From an uncultured Azospirillum sp. (GTDB lineage Bacteria; Pseudomonadota; Alphaproteobacteria; RF32; CAG-239): 64,000 bases of DNA. Where the stretch lies: the NCBI GenBank assembly GCA_900538765.1, contig UQAB01000008.1, positions 481 to 64,480 on the forward strand, given 5' to 3'. Shown here piece after piece: positions 2,712-64,000 of the stretch. Position numbers and translations under genes: made by a program. Each line of letters opens with the position of its first letter. Positions within the stretch are counted from its first letter, which is position 1. The notes beneath the pieces are model-generated. The model made no database searches. It had not been told where the DNA came from and saw only the letters and a program-made list of their open reading frames with translations.

Positions 2712-4976
2712 ATGAAGTCCCCCGCTACAAATCAGGCTTTTGCAACATTGAAGCTTCTCCGCGAAATTAACGAGGAGCAGATTGCCGTTGAAGACAAGCT
2801 CAACCGCATAACAAAAGTGATTGCGGAGCAAATGGAAGCAGATGGCGCTTCCTGCTTCATCAGTATTGATGACAATTATCTGGAGTTGTTTGCCGCCTAT
2901 GGATTTAATCCCAATGCCGCCCACCGCGTTTCATTCCGCGTCGGTGAAGGGTTAATCGGCAATATCGCCAAATACTGCCGCCCTCTGGCTGTCAGCGACG
3001 CCCCCTCTCATCCGAAATATGTGTATAATAAAGAATTTGGCGAAGATGATTACAAGTCTTTTTTAGGTGTGCCGTTAATCCGCCGCAATCGTTCGGTCGG
3101 CGTCCTGCTTATTGAGAACCGGGAGCAGCGGGAATATTCCGCCGCGGATCAGGAAGCGCTGGAAACAATTGCCATGTTTGTTGCCGATATCGTAACATCT
3201 GATGATATGGCCGAGTTTAAAAACAGCCTGATAAAGCAGCGTGGTTTGATTACGAGGGAACGTGTCAAAGGTTTAAGCCTGAGTAAAGGCTATGGGCTGG
3301 GAGCCGCGGTTTTGCACCGACGCCGCCACGCTGTCACCAAGATTATTGCCGAAGACAAGGATAAGGAACTGGATCGCCTGACCGCCGCCCATAAAAAAAT
3401 GAATGAAGATTTGGACGCCAAATTTAATTCGACCAAATTGGGAATAGGCGAACACATGGATATTTTGGACGCTTATCTGATGTTTGCCAAAGACAAAGGC
3501 TGGTTTAAAAAAATTGCCGACAACGTGATGAGCGGGCTGACTGCCGAGGCGGCAATTGAGCGGGCTTATGAAGATATGTGGAACCGCCTTTCCGCCACCA
3601 AGGACAATTATCTGAAAGAACGCCTGCATGATTTGCGGGATGTCGCCGACCGTCTGCATGCCTATTTGAGCGGCGATTATGAAAATACGGCCGCAGCTGA
3701 TGGCGACGATATTATCGTTATTGCCCAAACCATGGGACCGGCGGAGCTAATGGACTATGATTATCGCAAAATCAGAGGCTTGTTGATTGAAGATGGAACG
3801 CCGACGATGCACGTCGCTATCGTCGCCAAGGCTTTGAATATCCCGGTTATTGCCAAAATAAAAGGCTTGTTTGAAGAGGTCAACCGCGGCGATATGATTG
3901 CCGTCGACGGTAATGAGGGCTATGTTTACCTCAATCCGTCAGCGGAAATAAAACAAAAATTTAAGGCCAAAATTGAAGAGAAATTAAAACTTCAGGAAAA
4001 GTTGGCCGAATTGCGCGATTTGCCGTCGCAAACATTGGATGGTATTAGAATTGGCCATGCGATTAATGTCGGTCTGGCCTTTGACTTGGATTATCTGGAA
4101 ACGACAAATTGCGACGGCGTCGGGCTGTATCGAACGGAAATTCCTTTCATGGCCTCGACGGTTATGCCGGATGTCGAGCAGCAGATAGCCTATTATAAAG
4201 AACTGATGGATAAGGCCGGAGATAAAAAAGTCATATTCCGAAGTCTGGACGTCGGTTCGGATAAGCTTCTGCCGTATTGGGCCGGGCTGAGCGAAGAAAA
4301 TCCGGCCATCGGCTGGCGTTCGATTCGCATTACGCTTGACCGGCGCGCCATTTTGCGCAAGCAGATTCGCGCGTTTTTAACGGCGGCAGAAGGCAAGGAA
4401 TTAAATGTTATGTTTCCGATGATTTCGGATTTGTCGGAATTTGAAGAAGCCCGGGAAACGCTGCTGATTGAGCTGGAAAAGGAACGAAAGTTCAACCGTC
4501 CCGTTCCTGCTAAAGTTAATGTCGGGCTGATGATTGAAGTGCCTTCGGTCGTCTTTCAGCTGGATGACATTCTAGAAAAGGCAGATTTTATTTCTGTCGG
4601 AACAAATGACCTGGCACAGTTCGTTTTTGCCTGTGACCGGGGAAATCCGCGCCTGACCGAGCGTTATGATGTTTTGTCCGCGCCGTTTTTGCGGTTGATG
4701 CATGAGATTGTCGCCAAGGCGGACAAACACGGCGTTTATTGCTCCGTTTGCGGCGAAATGGCGTCTAATCCGATTGAGGCGATGGCTTTGATTGGGCTGG
4801 GGTATCGCAATATTTCGTCTTCGGGATCAGCCTACGGCAAAGTAAAAAGCATGATTCGTACCATGAATGTCCGTGAAGTGTCCGATTATGTGCAAAGCCT
4901 GCTGAAATCAACAAAGAAAACGCTGCGTCCGCAGTTATTTGCATATGCTTATGATCACGGTATTGAAATATATTAA
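2712..4976 (+). CDS. ptsP: Phosphoenolpyruvate-protein phosphotransferase with an N-terminal GAF domain (EI-Ntr)
   Basis: A 754-aa protein. It has a GAF-like N-terminus, a phosphohistidine region GTPTMHVAIVAKALNIPV, a PEP-utilizer C-terminus with the NDLAQF motif, and CGEMA. Confidence 0.85.
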   Translation: MKSPATNQAFATLKLLREINEEQIAVEDKLNRITKVIAEQMEADGASCFISIDDNYLELFAAYGFNPNAAHRVSFRVGEGLIGNIAKYCRPLAVSDAPSHPKYVYNKEFGEDDYKSFLGVPLIRRNRSVGVLLIENREQREYSAADQEALETIAMFVADIVTSDDMAEFKNSLIKQRGLITRERVKGLSLSKGYGLGAAVLHRRRHAVTKIIAEDKDKELDRLTAAHKKMNEDLDAKFNSTKLGIGEHMDILDAYLMFAKDKGWFKKIADNVMSGLTAEAAIERAYEDMWNRLSATKDNYLKERLHDLRDVADRLHAYLSGDYENTAAADGDDIIVIAQTMGPAELMDYDYRKIRGLLIEDGTPTMHVAIVAKALNIPVIAKIKGLFEEVNRGDMIAVDGNEGYVYLNPSAEIKQKFKAKIEEKLKLQEKLAELRDLPSQTLDGIRIGHAINVGLAFDLDYLETTNCDGVGLYRTEIPFMASTVMPDVEQQIAYYKELMDKAGDKKVIFRSLDVGSDKLLPYWAGLSEENPAIGWRSIRITLDRRAILRKQIRAFLTAAEGKELNVMFPMISDLSEFEEARETLLIELEKERKFNRPVPAKVNVGLMIEVPSVVFQLDDILEKADFISVGTNDLAQFVFACDRGNPRLTERYDVLSAPFLRLMHEIVAKADKHGVYCSVCGEMASNPIEAMALIGLGYRNISSSGSAYGKVKSMIRTMNVREVSDYVQSLLKSTKKTLRPQLFAYAYDHGIEIY

Positions 4977-6116: not shown

Positions 6117-6132
6117 TGTAATTTAAATCAGG

Positions 6133-6170
6133 GAAAATAGCAGGCGCAAACTTGCTATTTTCTTTTGTTT
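6133..6170 (+). terminator. Intrinsic terminator after the rodZ-like gene
   Basis: A 12-bp stem (6133-6144 with 6151-6162) is followed by TTTTGTTT. Confidence 0.75.
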
Positions 6171-6186
6171 TTATAACGAGGAAAAA

Positions 6187-7251
6187 ATGGAAAACATAAA
6201 AAGGCGCCAAAGCCGTAAAATCATGGTCGGAAAAGTTGCCGTCGGCGGAGATGCGCCGATAACGGTACAGTCAATGACCAATACGCCGACATCTGATGTC
6301 CGGGCGACGGTCGAGCAGATTAAGCGTCAGGAAGCCGTAGGCTGCGATATTACCCGCTGTTCCTGTCCGGATCGTGAATCCGCGCTGGCGTTGAAGGAAA
6401 TTACGCGCCAGGTCACAATTCCTGTTGTGGCGGATATCCATTTTGATTATCGTTTGGGTATTTTAGCAGCGGAAAACGGCGCGGCCTGCCTGCGCATTAA
6501 TCCGGGAAACATCGGCAGCGTCGAGCGGGTAAAAGCAGTTGTTCAGGCCGCCAAAGACTACGGCTGTTCGATTCGCATCGGAGTCAACGGCGGTTCCCTC
6601 GATAAAAGATTATTGGAAAAATATGGCGAGCCCTGTGCCGACGCTATGGTTGAAAGTGCGCTGGAACAGGCAAAAATGCTTGAAGATAATGATTTTCGCG
6701 AATTTAAAATCAGTGTAAAATCGTCAAATACAATGATGACGATTGAAGCCTATCGTAAATTGGCCGCGTCTTGCGACTATCCTTTGCATCTCGGCGTTAC
6801 CGAAGCTGGAGGCCTGCGCGCCGGTACGGTTAAATCGGCGTTGGGGATAGGCTCTCTGCTGATGCAGGGAATAGGCGATACGCTGCGCGTTTCCTTGACT
6901 GCGGATGTTGAGGAAGAAGTAAAAGCCGGTTATGAAATCTTAAAAGCACTGGATTTGCGTCATCGCGGCGTCAGAATAATCTCTTGCCCGACTTGCGCCC
7001 GCCGCGGTTATGACGTGCAGAAAACCGTGGAAACATTGGAACAGCGTCTGGCCCATATCGGCAAACCGCTGACCCTGGCGGTTATGGGCTGTGTGGTTAA
7101 CGGGCCGGGCGAAGCGGCTCACGCCGATTTCGGCGTTTGTGGAGGAAATGAAGATAATATGCTTTATATCGGCGGCAAGGCTGCCTATAAAGTGAAAAAT
7201 GAAGATATTGTAGATGAATTGGTTCGGCTTGTGGAAGAAAAAGCCGGTTAA
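6187..7251 (+). CDS. ispG: 4-hydroxy-3-methylbut-2-en-1-yl diphosphate synthase
   Basis: Full-length GcpE-type sequence ([34 protein letters not shown]). Confidence 0.92.
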
Positions 7252-9576: not shown

Positions 9577-9610
9577 AAAAACGGAGAGTTTTTGCTCTCC
9601 GTTTTCTTTT
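9574..9610. terminator. Bidirectional intrinsic terminator
   Basis: An 8-bp stem ACGGAGAG/CTCTCCGT lies between an A-run and TTTCTTTT, between convergent genes. Confidence 0.8.
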
Positions 9611-10047
9611 TACTTTGTTTGTATTTTTTCGAGCCTGCCGCTGGCCGTCACTTCATACCCCTGTTCCCGCAGGGCTTCTTTGCCGCCCTCGTCAAAGGTG
9701 TAGTAATAAATCAGCTCGCGCTCGTTGATTCTGCCTGCGTCAACTGCTGCCTGCGGAATGCCCCAGACAACGGAAATCGGCCAGGTCAGAAGGTTGAGAA
9801 AACCATATAACATCTGCCCGTTGTCCGCGCCATTGCCTGACGCCAGATAAAAGTTTCCACCGCCCGGCAGCAGGTTCAAAAGGCCGGCGCCGGCTGCGCT
9901 GGCAGGTTTTTCCCAGTTTCCGGCGGGTTTTTCCGTGGTAATGCCCTGCGCGCGCAGGCTGCGCAATGTGTTGTTTTCCTGATGCGTTAAGGAAACACAG
10001 CCGGAGAGGAGAAGCCCCAGCATTGTGTATGCAATTAAGTTTTTCAT
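9610..10047 (-). CDS. Hypothetical lipoprotein
   Basis: The lipobox LLLSGC follows MKNLIAYTMLG. I prefer the internal ATG at 10047 over 10071 because 10071 lies only 10 nt from the upstream terminator hairpin. The gene lies directly downstream of structured RNA copy 1. Confidence 0.55.
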   Translation of the reverse strand: MKNLIAYTMLGLLLSGCVSLTHQENNTLRSLRAQGITTEKPAGNWEKPASAAGAGLLNLLPGGGNFYLASGNGADNGQMLYGFLNLLTWPISVVWGIPQAAVDAGRINERELIYYYTFDEGGKEALREQGYEVTASGRLEKIQTK

Positions 10048-10080
10048 ATCTTCAAACATCCTGTTTTTCATTCTGTTAAC

Positions 10081-10290
10081 AAAACAAAACCCGCGCTAAT
10101 AAAGGCGGGCGGATGTTCGAAAACCGAGTATCGTTTCGGCTCAGCGCTTTCGTGCTATGCCTTATTACGCCGACATCCGTCCGATGACAGAGGTCGGCAT
10201 ATTTAATTTAAGTCGCTATGCGAAACGACTACGATACGAGGGTTTTCGAAGCCCTGAGCATTGTTCTTTTCTACGGAACAACGCCTGAAC
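10081..10290 (-). ncRNA. Candidate structured leader RNA or sRNA, copy 1 (unassigned family)
   Basis: It is the reverse-complement homolog of 38660..38881, with conserved blocks, compensatory stem changes and its own terminator (CCCGC/GCGGG stem at 10090-10109 plus a T-run). Details are in the findings. Confidence 0.55.
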
Positions 10291-10396
10291 TTAAGTTAAC
10301 GGATTTTGAGTAATAAATCAAGTTAAAAACATTGTGTCGCACCTCACTGAACTTGATTAAGAAAACAAAGGGTTTAGGCTTTCCGTTTATTTAATG

Positions 10397-10822
10397 TTAT
10401 CTCCTGCTTTGCGCCGCGGCTTTTGAGGCAACCCGTAAGGCGAAATCAATGTCAATTTTTCCGTTTTTATCCAAAAATTGATTGGTTTGTAATTTGTTTA
10501 AGTCGTTAGGAATCTGTTTTTCTTTTGAAGATTTTTTATCTTGCTCAGATTGCGGCTGGGTGTTTTTTTCACTTTCTTTGCGTTCTGCTTCATATAAATT
10601 GAAAAAGGCTTTTTTAGCTTCCGGTAAAATATTTTTTGTATCTTTGACTTTGTCTTTCAGCCATTTTTCAAATTCATCAGGGAATTCATTATTATTTTCA
10701 GGTAAAGTCCCGTTTTCCTTTTCTTTAAGATATAGCTGCATAAATGCGATTTTAGCTTCAGGTAAAATATGTTTGGCGTCTGTCACTTTTGTTTCGAGCC
10801 ATTCATTAAAACTTATAGTCAT
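10397..10822 (-). CDS. Hypothetical protein with an internal duplication
   Basis: Two copies of a WL..KV.D.K.ILPEAK.AF..LY module are followed by a Lys/Ser/Gln-rich tail. The gene is visibly AT-rich. Confidence 0.5.
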   Translation of the reverse strand: MTISFNEWLETKVTDAKHILPEAKIAFMQLYLKEKENGTLPENNNEFPDEFEKWLKDKVKDTKNILPEAKKAFFNLYEAERKESEKNTQPQSEQDKKSSKEKQIPNDLNKLQTNQFLDKNGKIDIDFALRVASKAAAQSRR

Positions 10823-25668: not shown

Positions 25669-25755
25669 TGGTGCGCTAGGCCGGAATCGAACCGGCACGT
25701 CCTTGCGGACAACAGATTTTAAGTCTGCAGCGTCTACCTGTTCCGCCACAAGCGC
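25669..25755 (-). tRNA. tRNA-Leu (anticodon TAA), CCA encoded
   Basis: The reverse complement reads GCGCTTGTGGCGGAACAGGTAGACGC...CTTAAAA anticodon loop...long variable arm...GGTTCGATTCCGGCCTAGCGCACCA. Confidence 0.9.
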
Positions 25756-38591: not shown

Positions 38592-38624
38592 TAAGGCCTG
38601 ATTTATATCAGGCCTTACTTATTT
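38592..38624 (+). terminator. Intrinsic terminator after tkt
   Basis: An 11-bp stem TAAGGCCTGAT/ATCAGGCCTTA with a 4-nt loop. Confidence 0.7.
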
Positions 38625-38659
38625 AGTAAAACAAAGCGTTGCATTCGTATAATTGCTAT

Positions 38660-38881
38660 GTTACAATAACACCAAGTGGCAGAGTTTGCCGCTGAGGGCG
38701 TCGAAACCCTTTTGTGTATTAGTCGTCAAGCATAATTACGACTTAAAATAAATATATGCTGATATCTGTCTGCTGTGCTAGGGGCGGGTGTCAGCGTTAT
38801 AAGGCTTTGCACGAAAGCGCTGAGCCGTTTTAATACACTACGGTTTCGAACATCCGTCCTCCTTTAAGGAGGATTTTTTTG
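38660..38881 (+). ncRNA. Candidate structured leader RNA or sRNA, copy 2 (unassigned family)
   Basis: TATAAT lies at 38648-38653. The conserved blocks are GCTGAGGGCGTCGAAACCC and GCACGAAAGCGCTGAGCCG...CGGTTTCGAACATCCG. It ends in the terminator TCCTCC-TTTAA-GGAGGA-T8 (38857-38881), 29 nt before the next start codon. Confidence 0.55.
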
Positions 38882-38909
38882 TTTTAACCTTAAAACAAGG
38901 ATGTTCAAC

Positions 38910-39860
38910 ATGAGTATGAACTTTAAATTTTTACTGATAGGGACAAGTTTGTCCTTAATCCCAACTTTAACAAATGCCCAATGTGTTGCGACAACTGATT
39001 GCGCCACTTTGGGATATACCGAAACCTCCTGTCCTGACAGCAAAGGCCTAAAATGCCCATTCGGCAATACCTTTGCCTGTCCGGCAACAGATAAAAGTGT
39101 CTGCGAAAAATATGGCTTCAAATATACCTGTTCCGGTGAAGGTTATGCCGGAGGCGCAGGGCAATCTTGTAATAAACAATATGAAACTTGTTCTTGTGCT
39201 GTCGGTTATGAATGGAAAAACAATAAATGTGAAAAAGAGCCCGGCGCAACTCTTGGACAGTGTACCGGCTATGCCAAAAACTGTAAAATCGGCGATATCT
39301 TAAACAGCGATGGAACCTGTTCTTCTGATAAAGTCAACGGCAAAGCTCCCATTGGTGTCGTGGTTTATATCAGTCAGGATGGTCGTTGCGGACAGGCAAT
39401 GACAGCAAAACCAATTACCAGTACAATATGGAAACCTGAAGAAGTGCAAGCGCCGATGGATGATACAAATGAAAGTGAAGCATTGCAAGATTATGATAGC
39501 TGCGGCAATACAAACATTATCACAAACAGTGGAACGCCTGAAATGTTTCCTGCCGCGTGGGCTGCTAAAACTTATGCCCCTGTTGCCGCGCCGGAAACAA
39601 AAGGAAAATGGTGCTTACCTGCGGCGGGGGTTTTATCTTCAGTTTACTACAAACGCTCAGTCGTTAACAAATCATTCTCAAAAGCAGGAGGTTTGGCAAT
39701 CGTAAATGCTAAAGAAGATCTTTTATCTTCCACTCGTTTTAGTTATGCCGCTATATGGGTATATTGTTCTCTGGATGAGTTTGCCTGCGCTTATGATAAT
39801 GGTCTTAACCCTATGGTTATGAGAGTTGACGGTGCGGTTCGTCCTGTTATTGAATTTTAG
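38910..39860 (+). CDS. Secreted cysteine-rich protein, possibly with a DUF1566-like C-terminal half
   Basis: The signal peptide is FKFLLIGTSLSLIPTLTNAQC. The N-terminal half has about 20 Cys. The C-terminal half contains KGKWCLPAAGVL, reminiscent of the W.LP motif of DUF1566/Lcl-C domains. I chose the ATG at 38910 for its RBS spacing. Confidence 0.5.
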   Translation: MSMNFKFLLIGTSLSLIPTLTNAQCVATTDCATLGYTETSCPDSKGLKCPFGNTFACPATDKSVCEKYGFKYTCSGEGYAGGAGQSCNKQYETCSCAVGYEWKNNKCEKEPGATLGQCTGYAKNCKIGDILNSDGTCSSDKVNGKAPIGVVVYISQDGRCGQAMTAKPITSTIWKPEEVQAPMDDTNESEALQDYDSCGNTNIITNSGTPEMFPAAWAAKTYAPVAAPETKGKWCLPAAGVLSSVYYKRSVVNKSFSKAGGLAIVNAKEDLLSSTRFSYAAIWVYCSLDEFACAYDNGLNPMVMRVDGAVRPVIEF

Positions 39861-59529: not shown

Positions 59530-61036
<1,507 letters not shown>

Positions 61037-61121
61037 AAAGACAAAAAAGTATGGTATACCGTCTACGTATCCTCTTCGACAAGAAAAGAAAAACTGGTGA
61101 GAGACCTTTAAGTTGAATTAA

Positions 61122-61198
<77 letters not shown>

Positions 61199-61205
61199 CT
61201 TAATT

Positions 61206-61281
61206 GGGGGTATAGCTCAGCTGGGAGAGCACCTGCTTTGCAAGCAGGGGGTCAGGAGTTCGATCCTCCTTACCTCCACCA
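61206..61281 (+). tRNA. tRNA-Ala (anticodon TGC)
   Basis: GGGGGTATAGCTCAGCTGGGAGAGCACCTGCTTTGCAAGCAGGGGGTCAGGAGTTCGATCCTCCTTACCTCCACCA. Confidence 0.95.
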
Positions 61282-61459
61282 AGAATTTCTTTTCAGGATA
61301 GTTATAAAGAAACAGTGAATAAGAAAAAGAAACGAATTAGAGTAAAATCTAAGGAGAATAAAAAAGTAAAAGTATAATTACACCTTTTATGATATATGAA
61401 AATATGAAATAAAACGGGTAAATTTTACTGAGAAGTATAGATAAGCAAATTATTTATAC

Positions 61460-64000
<2,541 letters not shown>

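Follow-up and report, generated by a model that had tools for sequence, protein, structure and literature searches.

Closest described systems

Riboswitches that act by termination, and attenuator leaders, both with dual control through a terminator and the Shine–Dalgarno region, occupy the 5′ untranslated region (5′-UTR) behind their own promoter. Several helices make up a conserved domain in which the stems covary and the junctions stay the same, and at its end is an intrinsic terminator, the 5′ arm of which is shared with a segment that has alternative partners. The cyclic di-GMP (c-di-GMP) riboswitches c-di-GMP-I and c-di-GMP-II sit before adhesin and surface-protein genes. These traits recur in an element of ~205 nucleotides (nt) on the minus strand at 10081–10290 of a 64,000-nt stretch of DNA from an uncultured Azospirillum sp. 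(contig UQAB01000008.1; ‘the window’ is this whole stretch), and in a second copy at 38675–38885 on the plus strand, and here too the genes that follow are for secreted or surface proteins. The element is probably a cis-acting 5′ leader of a new regulatory-RNA family, off by default and flipped by a signal. What sets it apart from terminating riboswitches is that no Rfam riboswitch model matches it, even at E values up to 10, that its closing helices P1 and P2 together span 17–20 bp and are far too stable to switch, and that its alternative fold must open an internal hairpin, P4.

At the gathering threshold, Rfam 15 matches nothing in the whole window except ribosomal RNA (rRNA) and transfer RNA (tRNA), and in a permissive search (E up to 10) of both copies and 12 other loci nothing recurs except RF02221, the small RNA (sRNA) family sRNA-Xcc1. 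The latter is an 88-nt sRNA of Xanthomonas campestris from an integron cassette upstream of symE (PMC2996969; bioRxiv 10.1101/2025.06.18.660453). In each copy scanned, its model matches the 3′ half, the outer helix falling on the pairing called (a):(b) below and the two inner hairpins on H1/P5 and H2, and the element is likewise directly upstream of a gene. However, the element is ~210 nt long, comes from gut Alphaproteobacteria and is followed by genes for lipoproteins or Cys-rich secreted proteins, and sRNA-Xcc1 has no counterpart of P0–P4. As the scores (30.4 bits for copy 1, 25.9 for copy 2 and 23.3–31.3 for five others) lie well under the gathering score of 53, and size, phylum and context differ, membership was rejected; the resemblance is architectural and not evidence of homology. 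No published description of the motif was found in the literature, and its signature 18-mer does not occur in the 200 files searched, out of 408 supplementary files, of the largest structured-RNA survey of the human microbiome (Fremin & Bhatt 2021).

There is a further parallel, with multicopy leader/gene families that grow by co-duplication. Promoter, leader and signal-peptide region form one conserved block, which fronts at least 15 divergent paralogues per genome, and leader variants recombine as they do in such families. Unlike co-duplicated leaders, the present one is demonstrably a folded RNA that has evolved by compensatory changes and contains a terminator, and an unrelated lipoprotein gene carries it as well.

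Layout of the two copies in the window

A first-pass annotation, made from the letters alone, had described 10081–10290 as the second copy of one structured RNA, and the sequence features that it quoted are all on the minus strand where it placed them. The element reaches slightly past these limits, with a promoter-like block upstream and a conserved ribosome-binding region downstream, so that the order in copy 1 (10321–10045, minus strand) is promoter-like block, P0, AGGGC, folded core, ACAUCCGCCC, terminator, ribosome-binding region and the AUG of the lipoprotein gene. SD stands for Shine–Dalgarno.

Copy 1
10293..10321, minus: promoter-like block, −35 TTGATT at 10321–10316, 17-nt spacer, −10 TAACTT at 10298–10293; predicted transcription start ~10286
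10260..10282, minus: P0, 5′-terminal hairpin GUUGUUC-loop-GAACAAU (fold and covariation)
10251..10255, minus: AGGGC, unpaired in the main fold; possible partner, GCCC of the terminator 5′ arm (helix P1a)
10116..10250, minus: structured core closed by P1 and P2 (fold z −6.3, covariation)
10250–10241 with 10125–10116, minus: P1, UUCGAAAACC with GGUUUUCGAA
10237–10231 with 10134–10128, minus: P2, GUAUCGU with ACGAUAC
10230–10211, minus: P3, AGUCG-loop-CGACU, enclosed by P1/P2
10199–10168, minus: P4, holding GCCGAC-loop-GUCGGC, enclosed by P1/P2
10173..10182, minus: segment (a), GGACGGAUGU, 3′ strand of P4 and look-alike of the SD region; candidate antiterminator/anti-anti-SD strand
10161–10138, minus: P5, GAAA loop, enclosed by P1/P2; GCACGAAAGCGCUGAGCC lies within the same span
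10121–10110, minus: UUCGAACAUCCG
10107..10116, minus: segment (b), the hub segment ACAUCCGCCC, which forms the terminator 5′ arm and complements (a), GGAUGUU and AGGGC
10081..10112, minus: intrinsic terminator, CCGCCCGCC-loop-GCGCGGG then UUUUGUUUU, with CCCGC at 10109–10105, GCGGG at 10095–10091 and UUUUGUUUU at 10089–10081 (sequence, fold, covariation)
10045..10062, minus: ribosome-binding region AGGAUGUU at 10062–10055, 20 nt past the terminator, and AUG at 10047–10045
9610..10047, minus: downstream gene for a 145-amino-acid (aa) lipoprotein, lipobox LSGC, signal peptide MKNLIAYTMLGLLLSGC, without a Pfam family

Copy 2
38675..38885, plus: whole element (blastn, fold, terminator scanner)
38639..38667, plus: promoter-like block, TTGCAT at 38639–38644, 17 nt, TACAAT at 38662–38667
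38675–38693, plus: P0; AGGGC follows at 38695–38699
38700–38708 with 38842–38850, plus: P1
38714–38720 with 38832–38838, plus: P2
38721–38743, plus: P3
38757–38796, plus: P4, with segment (a) at 38782–38791
38803–38826, plus: P5
38850–38859, plus: segment (b)
38856–38885, plus: terminator, its hairpin called by the terminator scanner
38897–38905, plus: SD region AAGGAUGUU
38910–39860, plus: downstream gene for a 316-aa Cys-rich secreted protein ending VRPVIEF, of a large paralogous family

That these are two copies of one structured RNA, as had been claimed, is borne out: blastn aligns them over 221 positions at 70.6% identity (E 2e-20), and P0, P1, P2 and the terminator covary. Copy 1 is more stable than all of 200 dinucleotide shuffles in minimum free energy (MFE), with z = −6.3, and copy 2, of the same architecture, is at z = −5.3, none of its 200 shuffles folding equally well. 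At maximum sensitivity, nhmmer finds no third copy or remnant in the window.

Copies elsewhere and their placement

How widespread is the element? An initial scan with an exact 17-mer common to both window copies, against one genome per species, gave mostly chance matches, together with full-length homologues in three metagenome-assembled genomes (MAGs): JAUNPO01 (‘Pseudomonadota bacterium S36M_St_32’, 15 loci), CAAFHC01 (a human-gut ‘Alphaproteobacteria bacterium’, 3) and CASEQD01 (1). A more specific composite pattern added 52 loci, all in human-gut metagenomes, and protein-guided look-ups one more copy, L164. The nhmmer total is 77 matches, 53 of them unique full-length copies, from human-gut metagenomes or MAGs of gut Alphaproteobacteria. 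On viral contigs the 17-mer has two matches, neither of them a real copy by nhmmer, so no phage association was seen. A distant homologue of the Cys-rich protein from an organism of higher GC content (L160) lacks the leader, and because of this the RNA appears confined to a narrow clade; neither L160 nor L161–L163, which retain only a remnant, added deeper covariation.

The placement of the copies is rigid. Wherever the downstream gene is readable it shares the strand of the element (65 of 65), its AUG lying 26–39 nt from the start of the U-tract, and no free-standing copy, i.e., one without an adjoining gene, was seen. All of the 51 copies examined for it have a promoter-like block upstream with a common layout (A-rich tract, TTGCxA or TTGATT, 17 nt, (TG)nTAxxxT, ~7 nt, P0), which a scanner for strict consensus promoters did not call. 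As a second promoter would not fit between the terminator and the AUG, the gene is presumably transcribed solely through the element. The position of a cis leader, proposed in the first-pass annotation, thus holds, own promoter-like block and terminator included.

The argument that the annotation drew from two unrelated downstream genes is weaker than it seemed, since ~58 of the 65 readable copies precede one paralogous family, that of the Cys-rich secreted proteins, and much of the spread is therefore co-duplication of leader and gene. What survives of it is that the lipoprotein is a genuine second gene family behind the leader: five copies precede lipoprotein orthologues (L120, L129, L147 and L151 carry the same leader), and the remaining two an N-terminally extended variant, in CAAFHC01.

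Main fold and covariation

In the main fold, Fold A, the stacked closing helices P1 and P2 enclose the hairpins P3, P4 and P5 (GAAA loop), the terminator follows, and there is hardly any variation in junctions and loops. Run on 15 copies, RNAalifold predicts P0, P1, P3, P4 and P5 as well as the terminator, and it also pairs ACAUCC with GGAUGU of the SD region. For covariation, 49 non-chimeric unique copies were anchored on the invariant motifs, with P2 registered from the junction; a structure-registered alignment was used because MAFFT misaligns the hypervariable P2. Pairing statistics were computed in Python with shuffle (n = 500) and slid-partner controls. The last figure on each line is the number of shuffles that reach the observed pairing.

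P0: 100% paired; 8 of 8 pairs changed on both sides; 0/500
P1: 90% paired; middle pairs CG/AU/GC, GC/AU and AU/CG/UA, outermost G.A, U-A or C-G; 0/500
P2: 100% paired (29–44% with the partner slid); ~25 sequence variants, 24 extra pair types; 0/500
P3: 100% paired; one pair changed on both sides; 0/500
P4: 97% paired; three pairs changed on both sides; 0/500
P5 (GAAA loop): 96–99% paired; no compensatory change, uninformative; 500/500
Terminator: 87% paired; three pairs changed on both sides (CG/UA, GC/UA); 0/500

P5 is essentially invariant, with one substitution across the aligned copies. P1, in at least nine variants, and P2 are complementary in every non-chimeric copy. P2 and its 3′ linker always add up to 10–11 nt, which fixes the geometry of the fold. 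When paralogues are compared, helix identity drops to ~0.35, like that of unconstrained loops, and the junctions stay at or above 88–97%; drifting helices together with kept junctions are the classical signature of a functional RNA fold, for which gene conversion of a flank is insufficient. AGGGC is identical in 52 of the 53 unique full-length copies (L138 has GGGGC) and provides no covariation.

The orthologues of copy 1 offer a close-range view. In the leaders of L129 and L151, P2 is AUUCCAUU/AAUGGAAU as against GUAUCGU/ACGAUAC in the window (10128–10237), fully compensated, the two strands, ~95 nt apart, having been replaced as blocks. The leader cores are otherwise 98% identical to copy 1 (P4 and terminator loops 100%), and the genes are 94.5% (L151) and 95% over 119 nt (L129) identical to that of the window. 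Also observed was complementarity between the conserved GCAUA of the P3 loop and UAUGC at the J3/4–P4 boundary (10213–10222 with 10196–10202; 38730–38734 with 38753–38759), which could be a pseudoknot.

Two other ideas were considered and dropped. P1/P2 are not gene-specific address codes: L080 and L084, different paralogues in one MAG, have identical P1 and P2, and across paralogues P2 identity equals that of unconstrained loops. Nor is a leader peptide involved, in agreement with the earlier annotation, as there is no conserved open reading frame (ORF), frame and length differ among copies, P4-loop insertions and deletions are not multiples of three, and the sole AUG-initiated frame (AUGCUGAUA...) lacks an SD region.

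Some copies are disrupted or mixed. Leader variants are shuffled among paralogues, and four copies (L155_1323, L134_301, L157_698 and L120_2328) have 5′ and 3′ halves of different variants, with P1 and/or P2 unpairable; at least L134 and L120 are on low-coverage metagenome contigs (~1.6x and 3.7x), and the four are probably assembly chimeras though they could be real recombinants. Elsewhere a MITE-like insertion (miniature inverted-repeat transposable element) of ~275 nt, with ~32-nt terminal inverted repeats (GACCTAAAATATCCCCTTACAG..CATATTCAG), sits inside the leader right after GCUGAGCCGUUUUAG, in L033 (~1134–1408) and L098 (~6118–6392), and L048, L070, L121, L124, L130 and L153 share the break point. 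Inserted copies have lost the 3′ arm of the terminator and have a plain promoter (TTGATT-17-TATAAT) with an AGGAG SD directly before the gene. In L161–L163 (1320–1397) the 5′ third of the leader alone remains (promoter, P0, 5′ strands of P1/P2, P3), followed by the same plain promoter module before a member of the Cys-rich family, which looks like decay or replacement of the leader. An ordinary promoter and SD in disrupted and remnant copies fit a leader that otherwise gates expression.

A hub segment, an alternative fold and the ribosome-binding region

The C-rich ACAUCCGCCCGCC that follows P1 can pair with one of four partners at a time. They are the 3′ arm of the terminator; GGAUGUU of the SD region; GGCGGAUGU, the 3′ strand of P4, giving helix (a):(b), the proposed antiterminator; and AGGGC directly 5′ of P1, which would extend P1 (P1a), its GGGC:GCCC pairing appearing in the MFE structure of transcripts that end before the terminator 3′ arm. 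In copy 1, GGACGGAUGU (10182–10173) complements ACAUCCGCCC (10116–10107) save for one mismatch. This pairing had been pointed out in the first-pass annotation, and is indeed conserved in all copies, with the core of (a), CGGAUGU, nearly invariant; it does not covary, and in the full leader it is energetically disfavoured. Its support is indirect, via the neighbouring helices of the same alternative fold.

That alternative, Fold B, is a three-way junction of (a):(b), H1 and H2 with zero-length linkers. H1 pairs CAGCG at the end of P4 with CGCUG of the P5 3′ strand, and H2 pairs AGCCR at the P5 base with YGGUU of the P1 3′ strand. At the R-Y position of H2, 32 copies have G-C and 17 have A-U, without exception (0 of 500 shuffles), and L164 is another A-U; once P2 forms, R and Y are kept apart, one at each end of a helix that can reach 10 bp. 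H1 is 100% paired, and in L131 its C-G has become U-A by changes on both sides, compensatory in Fold B, whereas in Fold A they give a wobble and a mismatch. When the 3′ half is folded alone, (a):(b) closes it in each of the six copies tested (z −2.1 to −3.5). The independent RF02221 model also picks up this architecture in each copy scanned, at scores under its threshold. Strand (a) has conserved G.U wobbles with its P4 partner and only Watson–Crick pairs with (b), which is as expected for the shared strand of a bistable element.

What is the ribosome to recognise? The 16S rRNA of the organism ends ...GGAUCACCUCCUUUC, with CACCUCCUUU as the anti-SD. GGAUGU has one mismatch to this anti-SD and a perfect match to ACAUCC of the leader, and GGAUGU does not occur in the 20 nt before the start of any of the 38 long ORFs of the window, which argues that the SD region co-evolved with the leader. 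AACAUCC:GGAUGUU is paired in 99% of alignment cells, without variation, and from this complementarity we infer that ACAUCC may mask the SD region. The UUCGAA part of UUCGAACAUCC was also considered as the mask and rejected, for it is the 3′ strand of P1 and varies (UACUAA, UGUCAA, UGUGAA and others) while the SD is constant; AACAUCC alone is left as candidate. Nearby, the terminator U-tract (UUUUGUUUUAA) complements an A-rich stretch (UUAAAACAAA) just 5′ of the SD region (10081–10090 with 10064–10072; 38875–38885 with 38888–38898), a third small hairpin of read-through transcripts that is present in MFE structures. The ribosome-binding region ACAAGGAUGU (38890–38906, with equivalents in most copies) can form an AACA/UGUU mini-hairpin presenting GGA.

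Proposed mechanism and rival explanations

In the mechanism proposed, the gene would be expressed only via read-through of the terminator, and would be off by default in two ways: the terminator would form, and in any read-through RNA ACAUCC, a mimic of the ribosomal anti-SD, would pair with GGAUGUU. Were the hub ACAUCCGCCC captured instead by the SD-like GGCGGAUGU, the resulting Fold B would do away with the terminator and expose the SD region in one move, and the gene would come on. Both blocks would be lifted by a signal under which P4 or the 5′ domain opens, or hub capture by (a) is otherwise favoured. Candidate triggers, acting on the conserved junction or the P4 5′ strand, are small ligands, second messengers, proteins and RNAs. 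Responsiveness to a signal is something that we infer. A more specific form of the proposal is of a new, clade-specific riboswitch-type sensor, in which a small molecule or second messenger binds at the junction, the SD-mimic strand lifts both terminator and SD mask, and at least 15 Lcl_C-like proteins as well as the lipoprotein are gated per genome. In its favour are the covarying structured domain and the same-strand 5′-UTR site right before genes (65 of 65). As to an expression platform, the terminator is clear and covaries, and there are two antiterminator candidates, AGGGC:GCCC and (a):(b), the latter without covariation of its own although H1 and H2 of its fold have some. In this detail the proposal is a tentative one, more apt to be wrong than right.

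Several points weigh against a signal-flipped leader. Most copies precede one paralogous family, and conservation partly reflects co-duplication. The helix (a):(b), although kept in all copies, shows no covariation (253 of 500 shuffles pair at least as well), and a C-to-U change in (a) is compensated inside P4 and not in (b). In the full leader, Fold A is more stable by 16–28 kcal/mol than any fold with (a):(b), and (b) is yet to be transcribed when P4 forms, for which reasons Fold B needs an active trigger. The R-Y covariation concerns one pair, which could instead be an isolated tertiary contact inside Fold A. Pairing of AGGGC with GCCC, extending P1, is an alternative antiterminator/ON design that is equally compatible with the sequences. 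The anti-SD:SD pairing, being invariant, has no covariation support, and is not in the MFE structure of copy 2.

Could the ~210-nt terminated transcript itself be the product, as one of a set of paralogous trans-acting sRNAs, the alternative that the first-pass annotation gave, or as a dual leader/sRNA, with ACAUCC as a seed against the GGAUGU sites of the family? With a promoter-like block, a 5′ hairpin and a strong terminator of its own, a discrete stable RNA is to be expected, Fold A leaves ACAUCC single-stranded, with P1 on one side and the terminator on the other, ACAUCC matches the SD region of each family member, and the sole recurring Rfam resemblance is to an sRNA family. Yet each of the 65 copies is fixed to a downstream gene with no space for a separate promoter, none is free-standing, a core of ~165 nt with invariant junctions is over-elaborate for a seed carrier, and at least 15 near-identical seeds per genome would be redundant, so that this is an unlikely account. 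A leader that does not switch, with Fold A as a platform for a protein (an antiterminator or CsrA-like), an mRNA stabiliser or a localisation signal, and Fold B as a by-product of GC-rich, SD-like segments, is less likely again. It would suit the fact that Fold A is by far the most stable fold and that the antiterminator lacks covariation. The CsrA consensus from SELEX (systematic evolution of ligands by exponential enrichment) is RUACARGGAUGU, which ACAAGGAUGU, with its possible AACA/UGUU mini-hairpin, resembles. However, the R-Y covariation and the double change in L131 suit Fold B and not Fold A, and Fold B has zero-length linkers and a coherent three-way architecture. As to the proteins, neither csrA nor Hfq was found in the ~1 Mb of DNA searched, a sample too small to be informative.

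There is finally the possibility of a mobile or repetitive element, MITE-like or of the repetitive extragenic palindromic (REP) kind, or of a duplicated flank kept by gene conversion, in either case without function at the RNA level. The first-pass annotation had proposed that numerous copies, randomly placed relative to genes, would point to this. Numerous they are, with at least 15 in one MAG, and the shuffled variants and the four copies with mismatched halves could be read in the same sense; placement, though, is never random, with orientation and spacing to genes fixed in 65 of 65. The element has no terminal inverted repeats, its helices stay paired through dozens of two-sided changes as the loops drift to ~35% identity, and the genuine MITE-like insertion of some copies, with its 32-nt inverted repeats, looks quite different. 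Identity as a MITE or REP is ruled out by fixed placement and covariation, and next to no weight is given to this whole class of explanation. The signal-flipped cis leader is thus the account that we favour as probable.

Downstream genes and other features of the window

The Cys-rich secreted proteins start MNINFKFLLLGTSLSLIP...AQC, end ...VRPV(I/L)xF and number 1441 protein clusters at E ≤1e-5. Against Pfam PF07603, Lcl_C (DUF1566), 4 of 17 members match at E ≤1 and one passes the threshold, namely the L057 protein at 40.4 bits with a cut-off of 34.9. The copy-2 protein of the window has no match to it, and aligns with the L057 protein at both ends, including the C-terminal W-x-LP...VRPVxxF region. 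By sequence the family seems distantly Lcl_C/DUF1566-like and is probably adhesin-like with an adhesive function; a profile search of PDB gave nothing significant for it. In tblastn searches of the window each of the two downstream proteins matches itself alone, i.e., no paralogue of either is there. Elsewhere, leader-plus-gene units can be clustered: L136 has two (1022–1276 and 4075–4327), 3 kb apart, and contigs of ~82–84 kb carry three or four (CEAB01046477 with L119, L145 and L150; OLIW01000174 with L115, L117 and L132).

Directly upstream of copy 1, on the same strand, is an ORF of 141 aa (10397–10822, minus) with an internal repeat (...KHILPEAKIAF... and ...KNILPEAKKAFF...) and no credible Pfam family. 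At 38592–38617, after the gene for transketolase and before the copy-2 promoter, lies a hairpin formed by a perfect palindrome of 11 bp, with T-runs on either strand; it resembles a bidirectional terminator and would insulate the transcription unit of the leader. An rRNA operon occupies 59530–64000 (16S, two tRNAs, Ile and Ala by their anticodon loops, and a 23S gene cut by the window end), and one further tRNA is at 25672–25755, minus strand.

Significance

If the interpretation favoured here is right, bacteria known from human-gut metagenomes alone have an undescribed, unusually large and well-supported regulatory RNA family, which would control what is apparently their main expanded family of secreted, adhesin-like proteins. 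It accounts for ‘empty’ intergenic regions of ~250 nt before dozens of genes per genome, and the present alignment could already serve for an Rfam entry. With more than 50 natural variants, compensated helices and nearly invariant junctions, the family is also a clean experimental system, and the design is two-layered (terminator and SD mask) with two testable antiterminator candidates. For uncultured gut organisms it would provide a handle on the regulation of their surface and on the signals that they sense.

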